Shown: in pieces, positions 32,658 to 58,891 of the stretch
How positions within the stretch are numbered: the first letter of the stretch is position 1
How the letters are laid out: each line of letters opens with the position of its first letter
Source: a virus
Length of the DNA: 64,000 bases
IMG/VR virus record: IMGVR_UViG_3300025732_000021
Coordinates: 57,868 to 121,867 of that record
Direction: 5' to 3' (one strand)
The notes under the pieces: model-generated
What the model was told of the DNA's origin: nothing
The model's database searches: none
The model's input: the letters and a program-made list of their open reading frames with translations, nothing else
Program-made: the position numbers and the translations under genes

Positions 32658-32826
32658 TTGTTTTTATTTTCTTATATCCTACTTTATAAAGTTGTACTTC
32701 AGAGAGATGTTTATCTTGACACATCCATGATGCCATGCCTGTTGCTGGATATAGTCTCATTGTTTTTACCTCTTTTTTACATACTTTACAAGAAAACTTT
32801 CCTTGATAAATAGAATATTTATCCAC
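32650..32826 (-). CDS. Small Zn-ribbon protein, 58 aa, GTG start (not in ORF track)
   Basis: MDKYSIYQGKFSCKVCKKEVKTMRLYPATGMASWMCQDKHLSEV...; overlaps both neighbours. Confidence 0.7.
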   Translation of the reverse strand: MDKYSIYQGKFSCKVCKKEVKTMRLYPATGMASWMCQDKHLSEVQLYKVGYKKIKTNE

Positions 32827-33832
32827 TAATCTTATTCTTAATCATATCTTGTAGATCAAGATCCTCTCTTACACGATTTACAAAGGCATCTCTTCCTTGA
32901 ACCTTAGATCCATCTGGAAGCAAGTACCATGCTCCAGTACGTTCTACTATGCCAACAAGTTCAGCAGTGTCAACAAGATCAGCGACAGAATCAATGCCCA
33001 AACTATCGCCTCTAAAATAGAAGTCATACTCACCAGACTGAAAAGCAGGAGAAGTTTTGGAAAACTGGAGTTCCCATCTAATCTTTCTACCAACTTTTTC
33101 TTCAATAGCCTTGTCACCAACATATATTTTTCCTTTCAGTGCTTGATTATCAGATTCAGATGAAAATAATTTAACTACAGTAGAAGAATAAAACTTAGTT
33201 GCCTGCCCTCCAGTTGGTTGCTGGCTTGTATACATAGCATTAATATTATTTCTAGATTGAGAAATAAGTATTAGCAATGTTGGCTTCGCTTTATTATTTG
33301 CATAGTTAAGCATTTTCCAGGCATTGCTAAAGTCACGAGACTCAGCACCAATTTGTTTTGTATTTTCTAACTGCTTCAATTCTGACGAATCTTTTTCAAA
33401 ATAAATTGCTGGCAGCAAAGACGTAATTGAATCAACAACAATAATATCCACTCCAGCCTCTATTAGATTTACTCCAACATCGACCATTTCATTTATTGTC
33501 CTTGCCTGAGAAACAATTAATTTAGATGTATCTACTCCTAATTTTTCTGCCCAATCTTTATCATAAGACATTTCTGCGTCTATCCATGCACATATTTTGC
33601 CTTCTTTTTGAGCCAGTGCAATTGTCTGAAGACATAGAGATGATTTGGCGGATGACTTTGATCCCCAAATAAGCACTTGGCGACCATAAGGCAAACCACC
33701 ATTCAGTGCACGATTTAATCCAAAACTTGGTGTTACGGCATATTCTGTCTTTGGAACTTCGTCACCAACAAGAATGCTTTTTCTTAATTTAGGGTTTAGT
33801 TGTGCTAATACATCTTCAAGGCTAACCGACAT
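32819..33832 (-). CDS. recA: RecA-like recombinase
   Basis: GGLPYGR, GSKSSAKS, WIDAE, IVVDS, GGQATKFYSS, GAWY. Confidence 0.92.
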   Translation of the reverse strand: MSVSLEDVLAQLNPKLRKSILVGDEVPKTEYAVTPSFGLNRALNGGLPYGRQVLIWGSKSSAKSSLCLQTIALAQKEGKICAWIDAEMSYDKDWAEKLGVDTSKLIVSQARTINEMVDVGVNLIEAGVDIIVVDSITSLLPAIYFEKDSSELKQLENTKQIGAESRDFSNAWKMLNYANNKAKPTLLILISQSRNNINAMYTSQQPTGGQATKFYSSTVVKLFSSESDNQALKGKIYVGDKAIEEKVGRKIRWELQFSKTSPAFQSGEYDFYFRGDSLGIDSVADLVDTAELVGIVERTGAWYLLPDGSKVQGRDAFVNRVREDLDLQDMIKNKISG

Positions 33833-36800
33833 TTATATCCTCCAATATTACTGTACCGTCTTTAGTTTTACCCAATTCAAATTTATATGCATGTCCTTCT
33901 TCAATCTTCATATATGCTTTAGCAAATGCAGTAGGAAATACTGTTACTGGATGAAGTTCTCTAGAAGTATCTGCCAAAGTTAAAGAAGCCATTTTTTTGC
34001 CTGCTTTTGTTATTCTAGGCTTGAATGATATTACAAATAGTTCATCATCTTTGTATGGTAGCATCCTGTAATTTAAAAACTTAATTAATGCAGCATCTGA
34101 ATTTTTTATTTCATCCACAGGAACAGCACTAACAATTCTATTATCAGAACAGAGTGCAATATAACTTCGTCCAGCCTCAATTGTTGTTTGCTCTTCATCA
34201 AATACTCCTATGCTTCCAGTCTTATCTAATATTTCTACACGAGACCAACCTTTGCCACGCTTAATTCCTTTAACCATTCCCATAAGAATAAAAGATCCTT
34301 TTTCTTCAAAATCTTCTACAGGATTTATAAAAGCATGATAGTGTGATGGAACTGTCTGCGTGAATTCTGGCAAACCTAAATATTCATAAAGATTTTCACG
34401 AATCTCATTATCATTTCTTGGATTATCTGGAAATGTTGCAGCACCAATAACTCTTAATGCTTCCAATGCTCTACTGTTTACTCCATTTCCTTTTGTAAAC
34501 GTGAAATCTCTAAGTGCTTCAAAAGATTTAAAAGGTCGTGCCGATATATAGCGTTCTGCAATTTTATCAGAGATGAACTTGATCCCCGAGAGTCCAAACC
34601 GAATACCCTTACCCTCAATTTTAAAATCAATATCCGAATCATTAATGTGAGGCAACTTAATGCTAATGCCCATTCTTTTCGCTTCAATAAGATATTCAGT
34701 TCGTGCATCCTTGTCCCTTTCATTTTTTAGCAATGAGTACATAAACTCAATTGGATAATAATACTTTAGCCATGCCGTCCAATACGAGAGCGTAGAGTAA
34801 GCAACCGCATGAGACTTGTTGAACGAATAACCCGCATGCGCCTCAAAGTCATGCCATAAATCACGAGCCTGATTAGGACTAATAAACTTAGAAGCACCAT
34901 CAACGAACTTATCACGAAACGCATCAAACTCTCTAGCATCTTTCTTTTTACCAATGATCTTACGAACTTTATCAGCCTCAGACCACGACATTCCTCCCAA
35001 CTGAACACAGGCTTGCATAACCTGCTCTTGGTATAGGATACACCCATATGTTTCTTCTGTAAAAGGTTTCATGGTTTGGTGCAAATAATTAACTGACTGC
35101 CTACCATGCTTTCTTTCAATATAATCTTTTCCAATAGTATTCATGGCTCCTGGGCGAACAAGAGCATTTGATGCAGCCAATTCAGCAAGATTTTTTACTC
35201 CCATTTTAACTAAAAGGTTTGTATATGGTGTTGCTTCACATTGAAATACACCTTTTGTATAGCCTTCAGAAAGCATTTGGTAAACCTTTTGGTCTTGCAT
35301 ATCTAGTCCTAAAAGATTTATTTCTGTTCCTTCTCTTTCCTTAATAATCTTTAAGGTATCATTAATAACACTTAAAGTTTTAAGACCAAGTGCGTCGATT
35401 TTGATGAGTCCGATTTTTTCAGCCTCTTCCATATCAACTGCCACAACTGGTATACGATCATCGCTGCCAGGAGAGTTGCGTGTCTCCATCGGTGCGTACC
35501 TAAAAATAGGATTTTTACTAGTGACAACACCAGCAGCATGTATGCCAGTACCTCTAATACGGCCACGAAGTTGTTCTCCATATTGTTCCACCTCTGGATA
35601 TTTTTCTCTAAACCATGCAGTTGTTTTTGAAGTACAATATTCATCCCATGTATCTACTAACTTCAATACTTTGTTTACATCTGCTAATGGAATATTTAAT
35701 GCACGAGCAACATCTCGCACAACACCTTTATCCTTAAATTCTAAAAATGTAGCAATAGAAGCAACATGCTTATATTGTCTAACAAGATAATCTTTTACTT
35801 CGTCACGACGAGAATCTTGAATATCTGTATCAATATCTGGAAAGTCATTACGCTCTGGATTAATAAATCGGAAGAATAGAAGTCCGTGTTTTAATGGGTC
35901 AATATCTGTAATACCTAATGCATAACACAAAAGAGATCCAGCAGAAGATCCACGACCTGGACCAACCATGATTCCTTCTTTTTTAGCCCATGAAATCATG
36001 CTTTGTACAACTAGAAAATAAGGTCCAAAATTTTTATCTTTAATAACCTTTAATTCTTCTTCAAGTCTATCAAGATATTCTTGATTAGTGTCAAGCCCTT
36101 TATCTTTCAAACCCTCAATAGCCAGTTCTTTTAATTGTTTATCTGGATTTTTATATTGAACTGGCAATAAATTTAATCCATCTTGTATGTCATAATCTTC
36201 AATCTTATTGGCAAGATCAATAGTATTTTCATAAATGTCAGTTCTCCATACCGCCTGCTTTTCCATTGCCTCTTTGATTTCTTCATAAGATAATAGGTGA
36301 ATATCAAACTTATTAAATGACATCTGTCTATCAGCACCATATAAATAATCAAGACGCTTCATTAAGTCACCTTGCTTTTTAGACTTTTCATATGTAGCAT
36401 CTTTTTGAATCTTATTAGAATATGTATTAAGAATTAATTTTAATTCTTGAATCTCTTTTTGTGATTGATCAACATGATGACAGTCTGGAGTTACAATTGG
36501 CTTAATATTAAATTCATCTGCTAACTGTAAAATTGTTCTATTAATTGATTCATTATTATGTGGCATTACCTCAAGATAATAATCACCACCAAATTCTTCT
36601 TTAAACCATTTAATATATTTCTTTGCCATACCAAGTTCACCAAGTTCAATTGATTTAGCAACGATTCCGCTTGGGCATGCAGAAGATACAATTATGCCCT
36701 CTTTGTATTTGGAAAGAACTTCAAAATCTATTCTGGGTTTTTTGTAATAACCTTCTGTCCAAGCAATTTCATTTAATTTATTCAGATTTTCTAAACCAAC

Positions 36801-37100
36801 CTTGTTCTTGGCTAGAAGGATTATATGGTTATAAACCATATCTAGTTGATCGGTTCTTTCGCCTTTATCTCTTTGATCAAAGCGATCCTCACACATATAA
36901 CCTTCTATGCCAAGAATAGGCTTTATACCACTTGCTTTAGCAACACGATACATCTCTCTATGGCCAGAAAGGGAGCCATGGTCTGTAATCGATATTGCAG
37001 GCATACCCAAGTTTTTAGCACGTTCAACATATTCAGACGGCAACCCAATTCCGTCAAATAGTGAAAAATGGGTATGTAAATGAAGTGGTACGTAGTTCAT
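33822..37100 (-). CDS. dnaE: DNA polymerase III alpha subunit
   Basis: PHP HLHTHFS...TDHG, GPGRGSSAGS, PDIDTD, HAAGVV, GVFQ, YSFNKSHA. Confidence 0.97.
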   Translation of the reverse strand: MNYVPLHLHTHFSLFDGIGLPSEYVERAKNLGMPAISITDHGSLSGHREMYRVAKASGIKPILGIEGYMCEDRFDQRDKGERTDQLDMVYNHIILLAKNKVGLENLNKLNEIAWTEGYYKKPRIDFEVLSKYKEGIIVSSACPSGIVAKSIELGELGMAKKYIKWFKEEFGGDYYLEVMPHNNESINRTILQLADEFNIKPIVTPDCHHVDQSQKEIQELKLILNTYSNKIQKDATYEKSKKQGDLMKRLDYLYGADRQMSFNKFDIHLLSYEEIKEAMEKQAVWRTDIYENTIDLANKIEDYDIQDGLNLLPVQYKNPDKQLKELAIEGLKDKGLDTNQEYLDRLEEELKVIKDKNFGPYFLVVQSMISWAKKEGIMVGPGRGSSAGSLLCYALGITDIDPLKHGLLFFRFINPERNDFPDIDTDIQDSRRDEVKDYLVRQYKHVASIATFLEFKDKGVVRDVARALNIPLADVNKVLKLVDTWDEYCTSKTTAWFREKYPEVEQYGEQLRGRIRGTGIHAAGVVTSKNPIFRYAPMETRNSPGSDDRIPVVAVDMEEAEKIGLIKIDALGLKTLSVINDTLKIIKEREGTEINLLGLDMQDQKVYQMLSEGYTKGVFQCEATPYTNLLVKMGVKNLAELAASNALVRPGAMNTIGKDYIERKHGRQSVNYLHQTMKPFTEETYGCILYQEQVMQACVQLGGMSWSEADKVRKIIGKKKDAREFDAFRDKFVDGASKFISPNQARDLWHDFEAHAGYSFNKSHAVAYSTLSYWTAWLKYYYPIEFMYSLLKNERDKDARTEYLIEAKRMGISIKLPHINDSDIDFKIEGKGIRFGLSGIKFISDKIAERYISARPFKSFEALRDFTFTKGNGVNSRALEALRVIGAATFPDNPRNDNEIRENLYEYLGLPEFTQTVPSHYHAFINPVEDFEEKGSFILMGMVKGIKRGKGWSRVEILDKTGSIGVFDEEQTTIEAGRSYIALCSDNRIVSAVPVDEIKNSDAALIKFLNYRMLPYKDDELFVISFKPRITKAGKKMASLTLADTSRELHPVTVFPTAFAKAYMKIEEGHAYKFELGKTKDGTVILEDINVG
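35372..35581 (-). CDS. Candidate overprinted 2-TM membrane protein in the +1 frame of dnaE
   Basis: GAGGTG SD 7 nt before ATG; local C/G-ending synonymous codons in dnaE; 69 aa. Confidence 0.45.
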   Translation of the reverse strand: MENNFVAVLEVLAYMLLVLSLVKILFLGTHRWRHATLLAAMIVYQLWQLIWKRLKKSDSSKSTHLVLKL

Positions 37101-37796: not shown

Positions 37797-39254
37797 TTAA
37801 AAGGTAACATCTGTCAAGTGCTTAGATAAATACTCTTTAACATCTATTCCTTCAAAGTTTTTTGCTTCATTATACAGTTTATCATATGCTTGCTTAGTTT
37901 GCAAATCTGAATACAAATTAGATCTATTAAACTGTCCAGTATTTACATATGTAGTCATCCATGACTGATATCCAAATGTTTTATTAGTATTTGAAATAAC
38001 GTATTGTGATATATAATCTTTATCTAATTCTCTTAATACATTTTCTGCATATTCTGGCATTTTATTTTCTATTTTAAAGTTTTTCCAAAATTCAGAATTA
38101 TCTTTGTCAGTTAAATAATGTATATAAATAAATCCTAATAGTTCTTTATTTTTTTGTAATATCAAATCATTATATTTTTCAATAACTGTTTCATTATTAT
38201 TTAATGTATATTCAGTTAAAAATTCTGGAGACGTAAACAATCTTAACATGTATATAGTAAGCATAATAGACGTAGCATGTAATGGTTCAAAGAATCCCGC
38301 AGCAAGCCCAACAGATAAACAATTTTTAACCCATGGTGTTTTATAATATCCTGGTTTAAAATCAAAATGATTAACTACTTTGACATCTTCTTTTTTAAAA
38401 AGAGTATAAATTTCTTCTAATGCATTTTCCTTAGATGTATATTTTGGATCGTATACATATCCGCATCCATATCTATGTTTTAACGGTGTCTTCCATACCC
38501 AACCATATTTCATTGCTATAATTTCTGTACACATAGAATAATTTTCATCTTGTGGTAAAAAGAATGCTAATGCTTTAGTACAAGGTAAACTTTCTGATGT
38601 ATCAACCCATTCAGATTGTAAGTGATGCCCAACAAATAAATTTTTAAATCCAGTAGCATCTATTAAAAAATCACATTGATAAGAACCAGACTCACAGTGT
38701 ATAACAGTAATATTTCCATTAAACTCTCCAACATGTTTAATTTTATCATCTATTATTTTTATTCCTCTTTTTGTTGACTCTTCTTTAAAAAATTCTGCTA
38801 ATTTAATAGCATCTAAATGCCATCCAATATATGGCCAAGATAGTTTATTTTTATTTGTAGCACTAAGTCCTTTATTAATATCATCTAAATTATTATTATT
38901 TGACATAACTTCTATAGATGCTAACTTAAATAATTCTAATTGTTCTTCTTTTGTAAGATCATTATCAGATACATAATTTATTAATGGATGAAAGTATGAA
39001 TCTTGTCTTTTAGACCATCCTATAAATTTTATACCGTTCTTTAATGTTGACCCAGTATGCTCTATAAATTTATCTATTGGTAATTCTAATTCATCAAAAA
39101 TATAAGCAAAGTTAGTTGTGGTTCCTTCTCCAGCACCCAGCACCCCAACTCTAGAACTATCTATTACCGTTATGTCTGCATGTGGCAATCTTTTATTAAT
39201 TGTTAAAGCAGCAAGATATCCAGCAGTACCGCCTCCAGCAACAACTACTTTCAA
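37797..39254 (-). CDS. Flavin-dependent tryptophan halogenase family protein (TTG start)
   Basis: VAGGGTAG, GAGEGT, TLKNGIKF, IDATGF, GWVWKTPL, GFFEPLHATS. Confidence 0.9.
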   Translation of the reverse strand: MKVVVAGGGTAGYLAALTINKRLPHADITVIDSSRVGVLGAGEGTTTNFAYIFDELELPIDKFIEHTGSTLKNGIKFIGWSKRQDSYFHPLINYVSDNDLTKEEQLELFKLASIEVMSNNNNLDDINKGLSATNKNKLSWPYIGWHLDAIKLAEFFKEESTKRGIKIIDDKIKHVGEFNGNITVIHCESGSYQCDFLIDATGFKNLFVGHHLQSEWVDTSESLPCTKALAFFLPQDENYSMCTEIIAMKYGWVWKTPLKHRYGCGYVYDPKYTSKENALEEIYTLFKKEDVKVVNHFDFKPGYYKTPWVKNCLSVGLAAGFFEPLHATSIMLTIYMLRLFTSPEFLTEYTLNNNETVIEKYNDLILQKNKELLGFIYIHYLTDKDNSEFWKNFKIENKMPEYAENVLRELDKDYISQYVISNTNKTFGYQSWMTTYVNTGQFNRSNLYSDLQTKQAYDKLYNEAKNFEGIDVKEYLSKHLTDVTF

Positions 39255-39550
39255 AGAATAACTCCAAAATATTTTGCAATATAAAGTATTGCAAGGATTG
39301 ACCATAAAATATTAAACCAAATTAGGGTAGGTATTGTTTTAACAGTAGATGACCAAATAAGTCCAATACTTGATACTAATGCAAATATATAAAACCACCA
39401 TACACTCACATCAAACAGTAATCCTGGTAAAATAATTATTGCTTTGGCAACAAAAGCAAAAAATTCTACAATGTTTGCCTTTGTCCAATATTCTTTATGA
39501 CCCATGGTTTTTAAAGCCTGTAACCATTCCATATGATTTTTATTTTTCAT
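39251..39550 (-). CDS. Small multi-TM membrane protein
   Basis: Three hydrophobic segments; coupled to primase and halogenase. Confidence 0.7.
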   Translation of the reverse strand: MKNKNHMEWLQALKTMGHKEYWTKANIVEFFAFVAKAIIILPGLLFDVSVWWFYIFALVSSIGLIWSSTVKTIPTLIWFNILWSILAILYIAKYFGVIL

Positions 39551-56900: not shown

Positions 56901-58891
56901 CTTGCAAACTTTGCCCTCTTACCCCCACCTATAATTGGACCACTAAATCCACGTTGGGCAGCAATTGCTCTTTGATAGGCGCTTATTAATGCATTTAAAG
57001 CAGATGTTTCAGATGTAAATGTTTGCTGTAATCTTGTGTGTATTTGATTTAAAGATGCTGCGACAGATGCTGCTTCTGCCTGCTCTGATGTTAAATATTG
57101 TGTTTGTTCTCCTAAAGTATTTGAAGATTGTCCTGCACGATTAAATATTGATTTCATGCTAACAAATAGTTTAATAATATTTGCAAGTCCGTTAGCCAAT
57201 AAACCAAAGGTCATAAGTAATATTGGACCTATTCCGCCAAGAAGTGTTGTTAGAATTACAACAAACTTTTTAGTTCCATCACCAAGATTATTAAACTTTT
57301 CTAATACCTTACCAATAAACTCTGCTATAGGTGTTATTGCTTTTAAAAATTGCTCACCGACTGGTGCTAAACTAACCTTTAAATCCTCTATTGTTTTCTT
57401 AAATTTATATGTAGTTGACTCTTCAACTTTAGATAATTCTCGTTCAGATAAAATAGCAAGTTCTTCTGTTGTGGCTTGAGTTAATTTTAATACACGACTT
57501 GCTTGATTTCCTTGCTGAATAACATTTTGGAATAGTGTTGATAAACGTGCAAACTGAAATTTACCAAATAATTGTTCAATTGCCTTTGCTCTATTTAATG
57601 GATCTAATGTATTAAGTGCTGCAGCAAAATCTAATACAACCTGTTTTACATTGCCCTTGTTTGTTTCAACAATTCCCTTTAAATTAATTCCCATATCAGC
57701 AAGCATTTGAGATGCTTTATCTGTTGGATTAATTAACGATGCAAGTCCAGACTTAAGTGCGTTTGCACCTTCTGATGCATTAATTCCACCTTCTTTCATT
57801 GCTGTTAAGAAGAATGCAAGATCTTCAACATCTCCACCAAGTTGTTTTACAACTGGACCAGCCTTTGGTATAGCAACTGTTAAATCTTCAATAGATACAA
57901 CTGTTTGGTTTTCTACTGCGTTTAAAAAGTTAATTTTTTGTGCTAATTTTTCTGCAGACAATCCAAAAGCATTTGTTAAGGATATTGTAGTTTCTAAAGA
58001 TTGCTCTTGTTCTACGCCACCTAAAACAGATAATCTTGTTGCTTCATTAACCTGTGCAAGCAGTTCAGCACCCATCTTGCCTTGTGCTGCTGCAGTGGCT
58101 GCCATCTCCATTGTCTTTTCAACAGCAACACCATACTTTGTAAATTGTTTAGCAAGTATTTGAATGTCTGAAAGCATTTTTTCAGTTTCTGCACCAGTAG
58201 TAAACATTTCTCCATAAACACGTTTAAATCTAATAGCCTGTTCTTCTAATTGCATAAAAGTTTTAGCAGCAGCAGTTCCAAGGTATGTTAGTGGTATTGT
58301 AAAGCCTACCATTAACTGACGACCAGCCCATTGTGTATTTTTACCAAAGTTAAGCATATTTGTTGCGCCTTGCTTCATTAACTGATTAAGCAATGCTTGT
58401 CTTTGTGATGCTATTGCAGTTTGAGTTCCATAGTTTTGCATATCAAGAGCCAATGGTCTAATAGCAATTGCTCTCATTGCCCCATTAGCATCTCTACCTA
58501 ATTTAATATACTGAGTTTGTAAATCTTTGACACGTTCACGTGCGACCTTACTTATGGTATCAAATTCTGATGAAAATAATCTTCCGAAAGTTTTTGTAGC
58601 ACCCATTGAATAGCGATAGTAATCTCGCATTGAAAGTTTGTTTTTTTCAAGAGCATTTGTAAAAGATTCTGTTGTAGTTTTAACAGTCCGCATAGAAGCA
58701 GACCATTTACCAGAAGCATTAAGTGAGTTGATTAAATTTTGTTGCATATTGGCGGAGACTGCTGACGCTGCTGCGCCACTCTTCGCCATAGATGTATGGA
58801 AGGCTGATATCTGCTTCTGTAAAAGTTTTATGCTGGCTAATGCTTCAGACGTATCGATATTTACATGAATATTCGATTGAACATCAGCCAT
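50903..58891 (-). CDS. Tape measure protein
   Basis: 2662 aa, Ala/Gly/Lys helical, TP901-like core (EGGINASEGANALK, LFGK); follows the tail chaperones. Confidence 0.93.
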   Translation of the reverse strand: MADVQSNIHVNIDTSEALASIKLLQKQISAFHTSMAKSGAAASAVSANMQQNLINSLNASGKWSASMRTVKTTTESFTNALEKNKLSMRDYYRYSMGATKTFGRLFSSEFDTISKVARERVKDLQTQYIKLGRDANGAMRAIAIRPLALDMQNYGTQTAIASQRQALLNQLMKQGATNMLNFGKNTQWAGRQLMVGFTIPLTYLGTAAAKTFMQLEEQAIRFKRVYGEMFTTGAETEKMLSDIQILAKQFTKYGVAVEKTMEMAATAAAQGKMGAELLAQVNEATRLSVLGGVEQEQSLETTISLTNAFGLSAEKLAQKINFLNAVENQTVVSIEDLTVAIPKAGPVVKQLGGDVEDLAFFLTAMKEGGINASEGANALKSGLASLINPTDKASQMLADMGINLKGIVETNKGNVKQVVLDFAAALNTLDPLNRAKAIEQLFGKFQFARLSTLFQNVIQQGNQASRVLKLTQATTEELAILSERELSKVEESTTYKFKKTIEDLKVSLAPVGEQFLKAITPIAEFIGKVLEKFNNLGDGTKKFVVILTTLLGGIGPILLMTFGLLANGLANIIKLFVSMKSIFNRAGQSSNTLGEQTQYLTSEQAEAASVAASLNQIHTRLQQTFTSETSALNALISAYQRAIAAQRGFSGPIIGGGKRAKFASGTTKVRPFYFARGTDTVPAMLTPGEAVIPAGPAQDPRNKPAIKHMIAGGTMEYLSEGVGSVVEKKLRRIGSGSEGRVGKSGTTVPIPYKLNVSNSGGAVPFTSINPASMVNLTSIYAKDIAKAAKISVTSINKEIKEWQIANKKAIDVATEAVQKGIPAEKAFGNLMEKFNADMKRAGGPVSKFADAARKMAPMLQQDLIQAQNEARRLGLNVKNAADATALAGKLPNNIVAQSITKPGNFQGLSKARGAGISMFGGAAGLPQYGIPRFMLTPGIAPASPAYLAGTSQEHFGQTKQEQAARAANREQRIKLRVGTNLGKQTAQHLVNGLEQGLRAELQSASPSKRMQKIGQDAGRGLIIGAQEYVDDARVAGQQIGVAATQGVMSQAQMAAASRASLYGGGPIDASQKSLRRQLQKQARIAELAQKKPLSQSTIMPMVAGAGTAKPTVAGKFSNWRQNKIEQQRLAKAERGSRPGVSMGGVGMGLSMAAMAGSMVPGKVGDVSQKLMMPLMMLTMIGPMLQTPIGALMVSIGAMAAGIIKLRMEFDKAQDSSIKLRESLSASKDSMRNLAKFSGNVTAGEIMDRRRDQKFGLVGAKPGKTTFGEAYVSSKEGKTVMDATVESLKTRGVKATGGDLTNQLVSSVLAGALSAEQAKSIALNIGQKTGNYGLGFSVTAQINQLIGPNGENLEKDPLEIRMKLIEQTEGQNKQLFQQMQEKGGRGGFLNMGALNPNVAMGGMTAAGAGLGAAIGTAILPGIGTIVGTGLGAIAGAVGGYFSQRGANERNGKLSGAVVASQRAQMEQQKEMLDSLDLYYQKKIKELEIEGKITEAKALQKKYDEDRNKLVEKGAQLNKDIMTNYGATKGNVRSAMDTGIDKLLTQRYKNSDEIQYLDAAKTLLSESQLTKEQQYLIKVKMSTGELTPSQQMFLFSNFGNDKNVQQQYMDIITRFSATTADDATRVMGMFSNPDGTPNKELQTKFLASVATKKDDKEASKYIDFFAEVANTNGVFDMTAILNFYMKNPEMQAKTQEIIDNIDKNKGKLTLDVMTNFLPENVMGSIDKAYFEKLSQDERITYLKEIATIVNVPDPVIQADPEFIKWQKEGALYNGVSYSGKSIGEQIAAYRQFQPWKVTQESIAQASATPAKTTSGGGKVDSSPLDDIVKKLRDVRKNQIKVTEGWSASMKTLDQLFGGKKRLEMFSGIEQDLAKLGAKGNFIELIVGMDPKEYEKRKNQLFKFDNNNNIIGLKKDAKTIQEALNAVVAGDYASQMIQLKQEIADQSAAYDILTKAGLSYADTQELIADKAFAAMIASEGNTKAAQKLIKLLKEAKTLSKGNQIKTDLQGDIDADKQTAAARANLAKAAKANNWSWLEADAILSDDTLREAMANWDKLTKEQAAVFKERLQQVLNSIEFKESIFNKGFEKAMEKFSVMETKIELDFQFTTLKDQDIIEKAQDKIAGINYQIDDWEASLKGIEEQEQKINDKYDLKYKALDEIRSLNDKISKQQKGQLTLADALSQGDIAAAARAAQDIRSQQATDAIDNQQKLLDAAKENELANIRNEKGYTRAQIEDQIKNLRDQIFKIEEQELEPAQERVRIEEAKKRELIQSLTVLGKSKLEWEAIKNRIDIARTSSAEYMQAIAAALTVVEDIVNYWNSLDGKIITTTHKIITIYENGGTPGPGPGPGPGPGPEPCPPGHIMNDAGNCVPVGGVSECGPGMVKADDGRCVPAGSFNTDNSDGTSKTDGSGNNNDSTGDSNTDYSGRLINGFTPYLIEAKEEYDKIVAKSLAPGATPSDFGHDLASADQKVINALNLVDAKNEYNKKVTQSLTKGATPSDFGAGLAASDMKVINAANKVIASSTSANAAKAAADAAAKAKAAADIKKFGGNAIAASQFANWPSGKSSGGLIKRFAVGGPVIGTDVVPSMLTPGEFIMSKYAVNTYGVDKMRAINNGDVSDASVYNYSIAVNVKSDANPDEIARAVMGQIRQVDSKRLRSRAV
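51829..51869. repeat. (ggtcct)n hexamer repeat encoding poly-Pro-Gly in the tape measure
   Basis: Six perfect ggtcct units. Confidence 0.9.

Follow-up and report, generated by a model that had tools for sequence, protein, structure and literature searches.

A probable small membrane protein gene overprinted on the dnaE gene of a large double-stranded DNA phage

The dnaE-like DNA polymerase gene of a double-stranded DNA (dsDNA) phage, known from IMG/VR virus record IMGVR_UViG_3300025732_000021, contains at 35372-35581 on the minus strand a shorter open reading frame (ORF) that has escaped annotation and is probably a genuine overprinted gene, encoding a small membrane protein. The source genome is 121,867 bp long, has 33.4% G+C and is rated 100% complete. 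We analysed a stretch of 64,000 nucleotides (nt) of it (positions 57,868 to 121,867 of the record), called the window below, and all coordinates are those of the window. The nested ORF lies in the +1 frame relative to dnaE, whose product is 55% identical to the 'DnaE-like DNA polymerase III alpha' of Streptomyces phages (tblastn). Among relatives the open frame, its Shine–Dalgarno (SD) sequence and its ATG are conserved, synonymous constraint on dnaE is tied to the integrity of the ORF, and substitutions follow a pattern specific to the +1 frame. The features concerned are:

33822..37100, minus strand: dnaE-like DNA polymerase III alpha gene, 1092 amino acids (aa), from the ORF list and its translation; host gene of the overlap
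35372..35581, minus strand: whole +1 ORF (protein P0003), 69 codons plus TAA at 35374-35372
35469..35612, minus strand: segment with strongly constrained synonymous sites in dnaE codons 497-544, which takes in the translation start and residues 1-38 of the +1 product
35590..35594, minus strand: SD core GAGGT, made of dnaE Glu503 (GAG) and Val504 (GTR), 8 nt before the ATG
35594-35589, minus strand: GAGGTG, followed by the 7-nt spacer GAACAAT and then by the ATG at 35581-35579
35579..35581, minus strand: start codon ATG of the +1 ORF, made of Tyr507 (TAT) and the G of Gly508

GenBank phages did not include a close relative of the gene (best DNA match 66% over 47% of the gene; best protein match 55%), and the comparison was therefore based on IMG/VR contigs. 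Two scans of IMG/VR, with 598 and 507 confirmed matches, each contributed their best 80, in total 160 loci, corresponding to 138 distinct dnaE sequences with 72-91% nucleotide identity to the window. The relatives were aligned by codon, the region being gap-free, with the exclusion of one sequence (L037) for an in-frame 47-codon deletion, and the dnaE tree was built without the nested-ORF region. Of the 138 distinct genes, 56, which fall into four groups, retain GAGGT and the ATG together with 57 or more open codons; among the 79 relatives in the first set, 35 have the full 69-codon frame uninterrupted as far as the same stop. Clade A, to which the window belongs, keeps the ORF in 33 of 36 rows; the remaining three, nested within the clade, have ACG, GAGTTA and stops. 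The ORF also occurs in clade B, in clade C plus L132, and, with 58 codons, as variant D. Within B it has been lost from a nested clade of 17 rows, and in the other half of the tree none of 48 rows keeps GAGGT, the ATG and an open frame. Most ORF-less sequences carry a TAA at +1 codon 19, created by Val526 GTA.

The excluded sequence L037 lacks dnaE codons 473-519 in frame, and with them the SD, the ATG and the first 13 nested codons. Its deletion also takes the DnaE stretch just before the IHAAGVV motif and may represent either natural variation or an error of assembly.

Synonymous changes were counted by the Fitch method per codon and per clade, relative to the gene mean. In clade A, 20-codon windows over codons 496-545 have 0.26-0.41 of the gene mean, and the rate climbs to 1.1-1.3 past codon 546. 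To avoid circularity the count was repeated for the full monophyletic clade, including the three rows that have lost the ORF; the value was 0.39, rank 11 of 1056 windows. Over codons 497-544 the ORF-less half of the tree (48 rows) gave 1.06. The same codons showed 28 changes against 69.1 expected in group B with the ORF (0.41), 15 against 41.0 in group C (0.37) and 8 against 36.3 in group D (0.22), these groups being defined by ORF status; in the 17-row loss clade inside B there were 129 changes against 93.2 expected (1.38). The constraint exists where the frame is intact and is gone where the frame is broken. An all-pairs synonymous scan also placed the deepest dip of the gene here (codons 500-535, 0.64), blurred by saturated distant pairs, and per-clade Fitch counts were used instead.

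Conservation of the DnaE amino acid sequence was rejected as the cause of the constraint because codons for invariant residues change freely elsewhere: the 318 such codons outside the +1 ORFs average 5.32 changes in clade A, compared with 1.24 inside codons 497-544. Codon optimality or translational accuracy was rejected as well, since the segment holds fixed rare codons and, in the rest of the gene, codons for invariant residues are unconstrained. The sequence-only reading of this DNA, which had proposed an overprinted gene with its own SD and ATG, had named a synonymous-site scan as a check. The scan was positive, with low values over codons 497-544 in the ORF-keeping groups only, and stops in close relatives were confined to lineages that lack the constraint.

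The start region is constrained base by base. Synonymous changes in clade A, where the gene mean is 4.59 per codon, numbered 0 at GAG503, 8 at GTR504, 7 at GAR505, 0 at CAA506, 0 at TAT507 and 6 at GGN508. GAG503 has no synonymous change in clades A, B and C, compared with five in the ORF-less group, and TAT507 is likewise unchanged in the three clades. Thus the spacer and codon 2 of the nested ORF (residue 2) vary freely, whereas the GAG of the SD and the TAT of the ATG are fixed, and this pattern of single-base change is what a translation start would give. The positions and the peptide given in the sequence-only reading, with GAGGTG 7 nt before a +1 ATG at 35581, matched exactly, and the conservation check that it had suggested for the SD and the ATG found both conserved. 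From stop to stop the +1 frame spans 93 codons, and an earlier ATG at 35644 would give a 90-aa form. This upstream start was ruled out as the conserved one: where codon 504 is GTA, as it is in roughly half the members of clade A and in most of those of clade B, a +1 TAG stands two codons upstream of the ATG at 35581, between it and the ATG at 35644. Hence 35581 is the conserved start.

Selection also acts on the +1 protein itself. Expectations for variants were taken from the rest of the gene, and a change was called conservative if its BLOSUM62 score in +1 was at least 0. For residues 3-38 in clade A, 10 conservative variants were observed where 14.1 were expected, and 5 radical variants where 35.3 were expected (binomial P = 0.0024 for at least 10 conservative among 15 variants); in flanking control regions the counts were at expectation. 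No other 36-codon window of the gene had a lower ratio of observed to expected radical variants than residues 3-38 (0.13). Third-position T/C swaps that give Val/Ala in +1 were present at six of eight codons (6.3 expected), those that give Leu/Pro, Phe or Leu/Ser, or Ile or Met/Thr at 4 of 17 (11.6 expected; one-sided Fisher test, p about 0.02). Variants ending in A or G were seen at one of 19 codons, compared with 181 of 224 in the background. Sites in the first 57 codons that could hold a +1 stop never did so in clades A (0/241), B (0/63) and C (0/36), as opposed to 29 of 134 cases at the same sites in ORF-less sequences and a fraction of 0.33-0.39 in the rest of dnaE.

The tail behaves differently. 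Residues 39-69 in clade A show conservative (10 versus 11.2 expected) and radical variants (28 versus 29.1) near expectation, whereas stop-creating variants numbered 3 against 13.1 expected (Poisson P = 0.001). Leu565 is encoded only by CTC or CTT in 33 of 33 clade A rows, though these are 26% of Leu codons. The rare codons GTC526, AGG534, TAC535 and CCG537 are fixed; they give Ser20 and the turn G-T-H-R, and their fixation is the opposite of codon optimization. The avoidance of stops and the restriction to conservative changes are specific to the +1 frame and bear out the proposal of an overprinted gene.

Composition and chance expectation within the one genome were also considered. G+C is 0.455 at 35400-35599, compared with about 0.33 nearby. 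A- and T-ending codons dominate the genome, and the codons across the nested ORF that had been singled out as atypical are all minor ones in the usage of the window, as computed from 48 ORFs of at least 150 aa: GAG 0.20, GTG 0.07, AGG 0.13, TAC 0.11, CCG 0.03, CGC 0.03, AAC 0.18, GGC 0.12, AGC 0.07, ATC 0.05, CTC 0.02 and GAC 0.17. With the dnaE protein fixed and synonymous codons redrawn by genome usage, the 69-codon frame was open in none of 5000 draws, and with the gene's own codons permuted it stayed open in 0.12% of draws. Three +1 runs of at least 80 codons, as in dnaE, occurred in 0% (genome usage) and 0.26% (own codons) of draws. The longest +1 run in dnaE, 100 codons, is a different ORF from the 69-codon frame, and by longest +1 run per gene dnaE was not exceptional among 108 putative genes (p = 0.083). 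An SD-like motif followed by an ATG and an ORF of 58-99 codons was matched 35 times on both strands of the genome; few of these matches were compared with the ORF lists, and the one in dnaE sits within a longer gene. Evidence for a nested gene from the single genome is suggestive, and the weight comes from the relatives.

The predicted product divides into three parts:

35501..35569, minus strand: predicted membrane helix, residues 5-27 (FVAVLEVLAYMLLVLSLVKILFL), from hydropathy, AlphaFold2 and relatives
35480..35500, minus strand: basic turn GTHRWRH, residues 28-34, conserved and dependent on the rare dnaE codons AGG534, TAC535 and CCG537
35375..35467, minus strand: variable second helix and basic tail, residues 39-69, free in sequence, with the frame open for 58-69 codons

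The Kyte-Doolittle mean over 19 residues peaks at 2.31 (residues 7-25), and the second hydrophobic segment reaches at most 0.94. AlphaFold2, run on 49 distinct peptides, predicted helices at residues 2-28 and 32-66 with a mean predicted local distance difference test (pLDDT) score of 72.8. Relatives show only V/A, F/Y and M/T swaps in the first helix. M1, N4, V6, L12, L16, L21, K23, I24, L27, W32, L38 and W51 are invariant and G28 is nearly so; the 69-residue peptide has no cysteine. In relatives the first stop of the nested frame falls at +1 codon 58, 59, 61, 64, 66 or 69. Pfam returned only DUF6170 at E = 0.065, under its cut-off, and PHROGs gave nothing for the 69-aa form and a noise-level match (E = 0.051) for the 90-aa form. 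In the ESM Atlas the best score was 0.83, below lead level. A profile search of 1.84 billion representatives gave two matches, neither of them an independent homologue. One, a tandem-repeat protein, was rejected as spurious. The other (protein P0005, 81 aa) is a public gene call that opens with 24 residues of the peptide in its clade C form, after which it follows the dnaE frame. The contig behind it is apparently frameshifted, in which case the gene finder picked the same start once the polymerase frame was broken. The lack of homologues elsewhere fits an origin de novo at the dnaE locus.

From these patterns we infer translation, membrane insertion, a time of expression and a function for the product, as follows. 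Ribosomes would bind GAGGT within the dnaE message and initiate at the ATG at 35581 in the +1 frame, yielding a product of 58-69 residues whose length depends on the lineage. Its functional part is predicted to be the N-terminal 38 residues, a membrane-spanning helix with the basic turn GTHRWRH; the rest would be a helical basic tail that is free in sequence and must not be shortened. The gene probably arose de novo, the T-rich third positions of dnaE becoming second positions in +1 and so specifying Leu, Val, Ile and Phe. It would be an accessory gene, held by purifying selection in several lineages and lost or replaced in others. No promoter-like site was found just upstream of the nested ORF, so the peptide would be read from the message of the replication module; it would then likely be made together with the replication proteins and act in the host membrane.

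An explanation that we consider unlikely is that the conserved entity of 140 nt is a nucleotide-level element (an RNA structure or protein-binding site controlling the expression of dnaE, or a DNA site such as an origin), with the frame, the SD and the ATG as by-products. Some other phages are known to have origins within replication genes. The shortness of the constraint (codons 497-544), its start about 20 nt upstream of the ATG and its end well before the ORF stop speak for such an element, and synonymous constraint alone cannot separate an RNA or DNA element from +1 coding. However, the minimum-energy fold of 35460-35615 was no better than that of shuffled sequences (z = -0.48; 54 of 200 shuffles at least as good), Rfam had no matches at E up to 1 in 35200-35800, and no promoter-like or terminator-like site and no iteron-like repeats were present, a 13-nt two-copy repeat being the only one seen. 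Nor would an element of this kind predict tolerance of T/C swaps just at Val/Ala sites (6/8 versus 4/17), avoidance of stops in the drifting tail (3 versus 13.1) or loss of constraint exactly in the lineages without the ATG or with stops. A nucleotide-level function of another kind may mimic these patterns.

It is also improbable that the segment is a recombined or converted foreign patch of C/T-ending codons at a conserved polymerase motif, spread recently among co-infecting phages. NNC and NNT codons cannot make +1 stops, and the frame would be open for that reason. Third positions in the segment are indeed enriched in C (0.17-0.18 versus 0.09 in the gene) and depleted of A, local G+C is raised, and presence of the ORF is patchy on the tree. 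The 58-codon variant D (MESNYVVALGVLVFTLQELLLVKIQSLGLRRWRL...), homologous to 35408-35581 of the window, is near-identical in L045, L059, L134, L138 and L158, with L059 placed inside clade B. Near-identity in such scattered lineages indicates that the short segment moves between them by recombination. Spread alone is not enough, however. The constraint persists in monophyletic clade A, which has 0.39 of the gene's changes in the segment while other codons changed about five times. Clade B has its own residues at codons 506, 530, 542 and 544, which it shares with its ORF-less neighbours, combined with the silent choices of clade A, and is therefore not a recent copy of clade A. The boundaries of the constraint coincide with the SD and the ATG at single-base resolution, and neutral drift after import would have yielded A-ending and stop-creating variants at the background rate, which was not observed.

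A further question is whether the overprinted gene, if real, encodes a holin. The sequence-only reading had described the product as a holin-like protein with two transmembrane helices. The first helix alone is strongly hydrophobic and conserved, and a basic tail is present; the second segment is weakly hydrophobic and evolves as if neutral except for the avoidance of stops. The label itself is not supported. That the product is the holin or single-gene lysis protein of the phage, which would be a special case of an overprinted gene and not exclusive of it, is very doubtful. In favour are its small size, the predicted N-terminal membrane helix with the basic turn after it, the basic C terminus, and a layout like that of phiX174 E, which is nested and whose Leu-rich membrane domain goes back to T-rich third positions of the host gene (review PMC8227390). 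Amidase_2, Peptidase_M23 and Glyco_hydro_25 were unmatched in the genome, and no lysis cassette came to light with them, a weak point in favour that covers three endolysin families only. However, neither Pfam nor PHROGs gave a match to a holin or lysis family. The second hydrophobic segment is not only weak (at most 0.94) but unconserved, and several losses in otherwise similar phages would be unexpected for a sole holin. The ORF is embedded in dnaE, in a replication module between the genes for SSB and the recombinase and not in a lysis cassette, and a product that is likely made with the replication proteins fits poorly with a lysis trigger. We suggest instead that the predicted product has an accessory role as a small membrane protein, with its active part in the N-terminal helix and the basic turn.

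One ORF on the opposite strand overlaps the same segment:

35401-35790, plus strand: antisense ORF, 129 codons, with third positions that coincide with dnaE third positions

The ORF is long for a genome of 33% G+C, but it was rejected as the conserved item in place of the +1 sense ORF and is hardly credible as such, because its selection would free the shared wobble positions, the silent sites of dnaE, yet variants silent in it are depleted (11 versus 41.2 expected), and it is interrupted within codons 507-544 in eight of the nine clade B sequences that share the constraint.

Several points weigh against an overprinted gene at 35372-35581. At least seven changes of ORF state are needed on the tree, so that the ORF is dispensable as well as patchy, and the scatter of the variant D patch over the dnaE tree means that the segment does recombine. 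An independent homologue was not found, and a word search of 5.8 billion proteins gave no matches. Each dnaE third position is a +1 second position, and synonymous and +1 constraint can be separated only by the type of change, for which the frame-specific counts are small (15 variants; 25 T/C sites). The definition of groups B, C and D by ORF status makes their counts partly circular, which does not apply to clade A and the halves of the tree. The constraint spans the first 38 of the 69 codons only, and the second half is at or above the mean synonymous rate of the gene. That the ORF is translated is suggested by the comparisons, and the RNA runs, short contigs of relatives, are silent on ribosomes: in none of 14 public runs were more than 13% of the sampled words present, and the four that were checked, from aquatic, riverine and freshwater metatranscriptomes, contained contigs of relatives that are 85-99% alike and show neither starts nor strand. 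Finally, the two other strongest dips in clade A, at about codons 738 (0.34) and 821 (0.42), fall within +1 frames that are open as well. Additional nested genes could account for them, or another process acting on conserved polymerase motifs, and mainly because they may share a cause of this other kind with the dip at codons 497-544, our confidence in the nested gene is not higher.

The two additional +1 ORFs in dnaE, which coincide with these dips and give weaker signals of the same kind, lie at 34766-35047 (minus strand, 93 codons) and 34478-34723 (minus strand, 81 codons). Their radical ratios are 0.35 and 0.31 and their conservative ratios, 0.74 and 0.94, are near expectation. No clear SD was found for either. 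In many members of clade A the first is broken at a point upstream of the part that is conserved; the second has a constrained stretch, codons 793-866, that starts at its ATG. As a tentative and rather doubtful extension, dnaE might be a nursery of de novo genes, in which three +1 genes (35372-35581, 34766-35047 and 34478-34723) for small hydrophobic basic proteins are selected in some lineages and shuffled by recombination, the first of them acting like phiX174 E, as a membrane-helix peptide read from the replication message and directed at a host envelope protein.

The dnaE gene lies in a replication module together with genes for a DnaB-like helicase, a primase, a halogenase-like protein, SSB and a UvsX/RecA-like recombinase. 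The halogenase-like gene (37797-39305, minus strand, 502 aa) matches PHROG 2928 'tryptophan halogenase' at E = 5.8e-90 and, placed between the primase and SSB genes, is an unusual neighbour for such a module. Inside the UvsX/RecA-like recombinase gene (32819-33832) there is a +1 ORF of 58 codons (32947-33123, minus strand) with AAGGA 7 nt before its ATG. Synonymous change is also low near the start of dnaE: over codons 19-100 (about 36800-37045) clade B, including its loss clade, falls to 0.19 at codon 19 and 0.38 at codon 65, and the ORF-less group dips too (0.56 at codon 45); local G+C is 0.40-0.43.

Gene finders forbid long overlaps on the same strand, and such genes are thus invisible in the annotation of phages and metagenomes. 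The 69-aa frame is missing from 1.8 billion protein representatives, save for the one call on a seemingly frameshifted contig, and no report of a gene nested in a phage dnaE was found in the literature searched. Here, in a large dsDNA phage and inside an essential replication gene, comparison by itself outlines a start site, a constrained core of 38 residues and a free tail. The data support the view that AT-rich genes, through their T-rich third positions, readily give rise to new membrane peptides, and the gains, losses and variant allele among the relatives form a natural series in which the birth and loss of such genes can be studied. Should the two additional nested frames prove to be genes too, hidden coding in the core genes of phages may be commoner than is assumed.

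Several known proteins share parts of this arrangement. The Rz1 gene of phage lambda is wholly embedded in the +1 frame of Rz in a large dsDNA phage and has its own start signals; Rz1 is a lipoprotein with a lipobox cysteine, an o-spanin encoded inside an i-spanin gene. The nested dnaE peptide differs in having no cysteine and in lying in a replication gene instead of a lysis cassette. Class II holins such as S21 are alike in size, in two predicted helices and in a charged C-terminal tail, but here the second helix is weakly hydrophobic and unconserved, there is no family match and no endolysin is adjacent. T4 Imm and Sp are small membrane proteins for superinfection exclusion, made before lysis from free-standing genes. 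The predicted product resembles them in being short and dispensable, with an N-terminal membrane helix and a non-late gene neighbourhood, whereas its ORF is not free-standing and shows no homology to theirs. The closest analogue in layout is E of phiX174 (Microviridae), a small protein encoded, as here, wholly inside another gene (D) in a shifted frame. The host gene here belongs to a dsDNA phage of 122 kb and encodes a replicative polymerase of 1092 aa, whereas E lies in a scaffold gene of a 5-kb single-stranded DNA phage; the two products have no sequence similarity, and any lysis role of the one in dnaE would be putative. A proline in the helix of E is essential, and the nested dnaE peptide has no invariant counterpart to it. 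In E the N-terminal membrane helix is the functional part, as presumably here, where the C-terminal part is basic and variable. The membrane domain of E is rich in Leu because the T-rich third positions of its host gene become second positions, and the nested dnaE ORF draws its hydrophobic residues in the same way; de novo accessory genes have a restricted phylogenetic distribution, as this ORF does (for both points, review PMC8227390).

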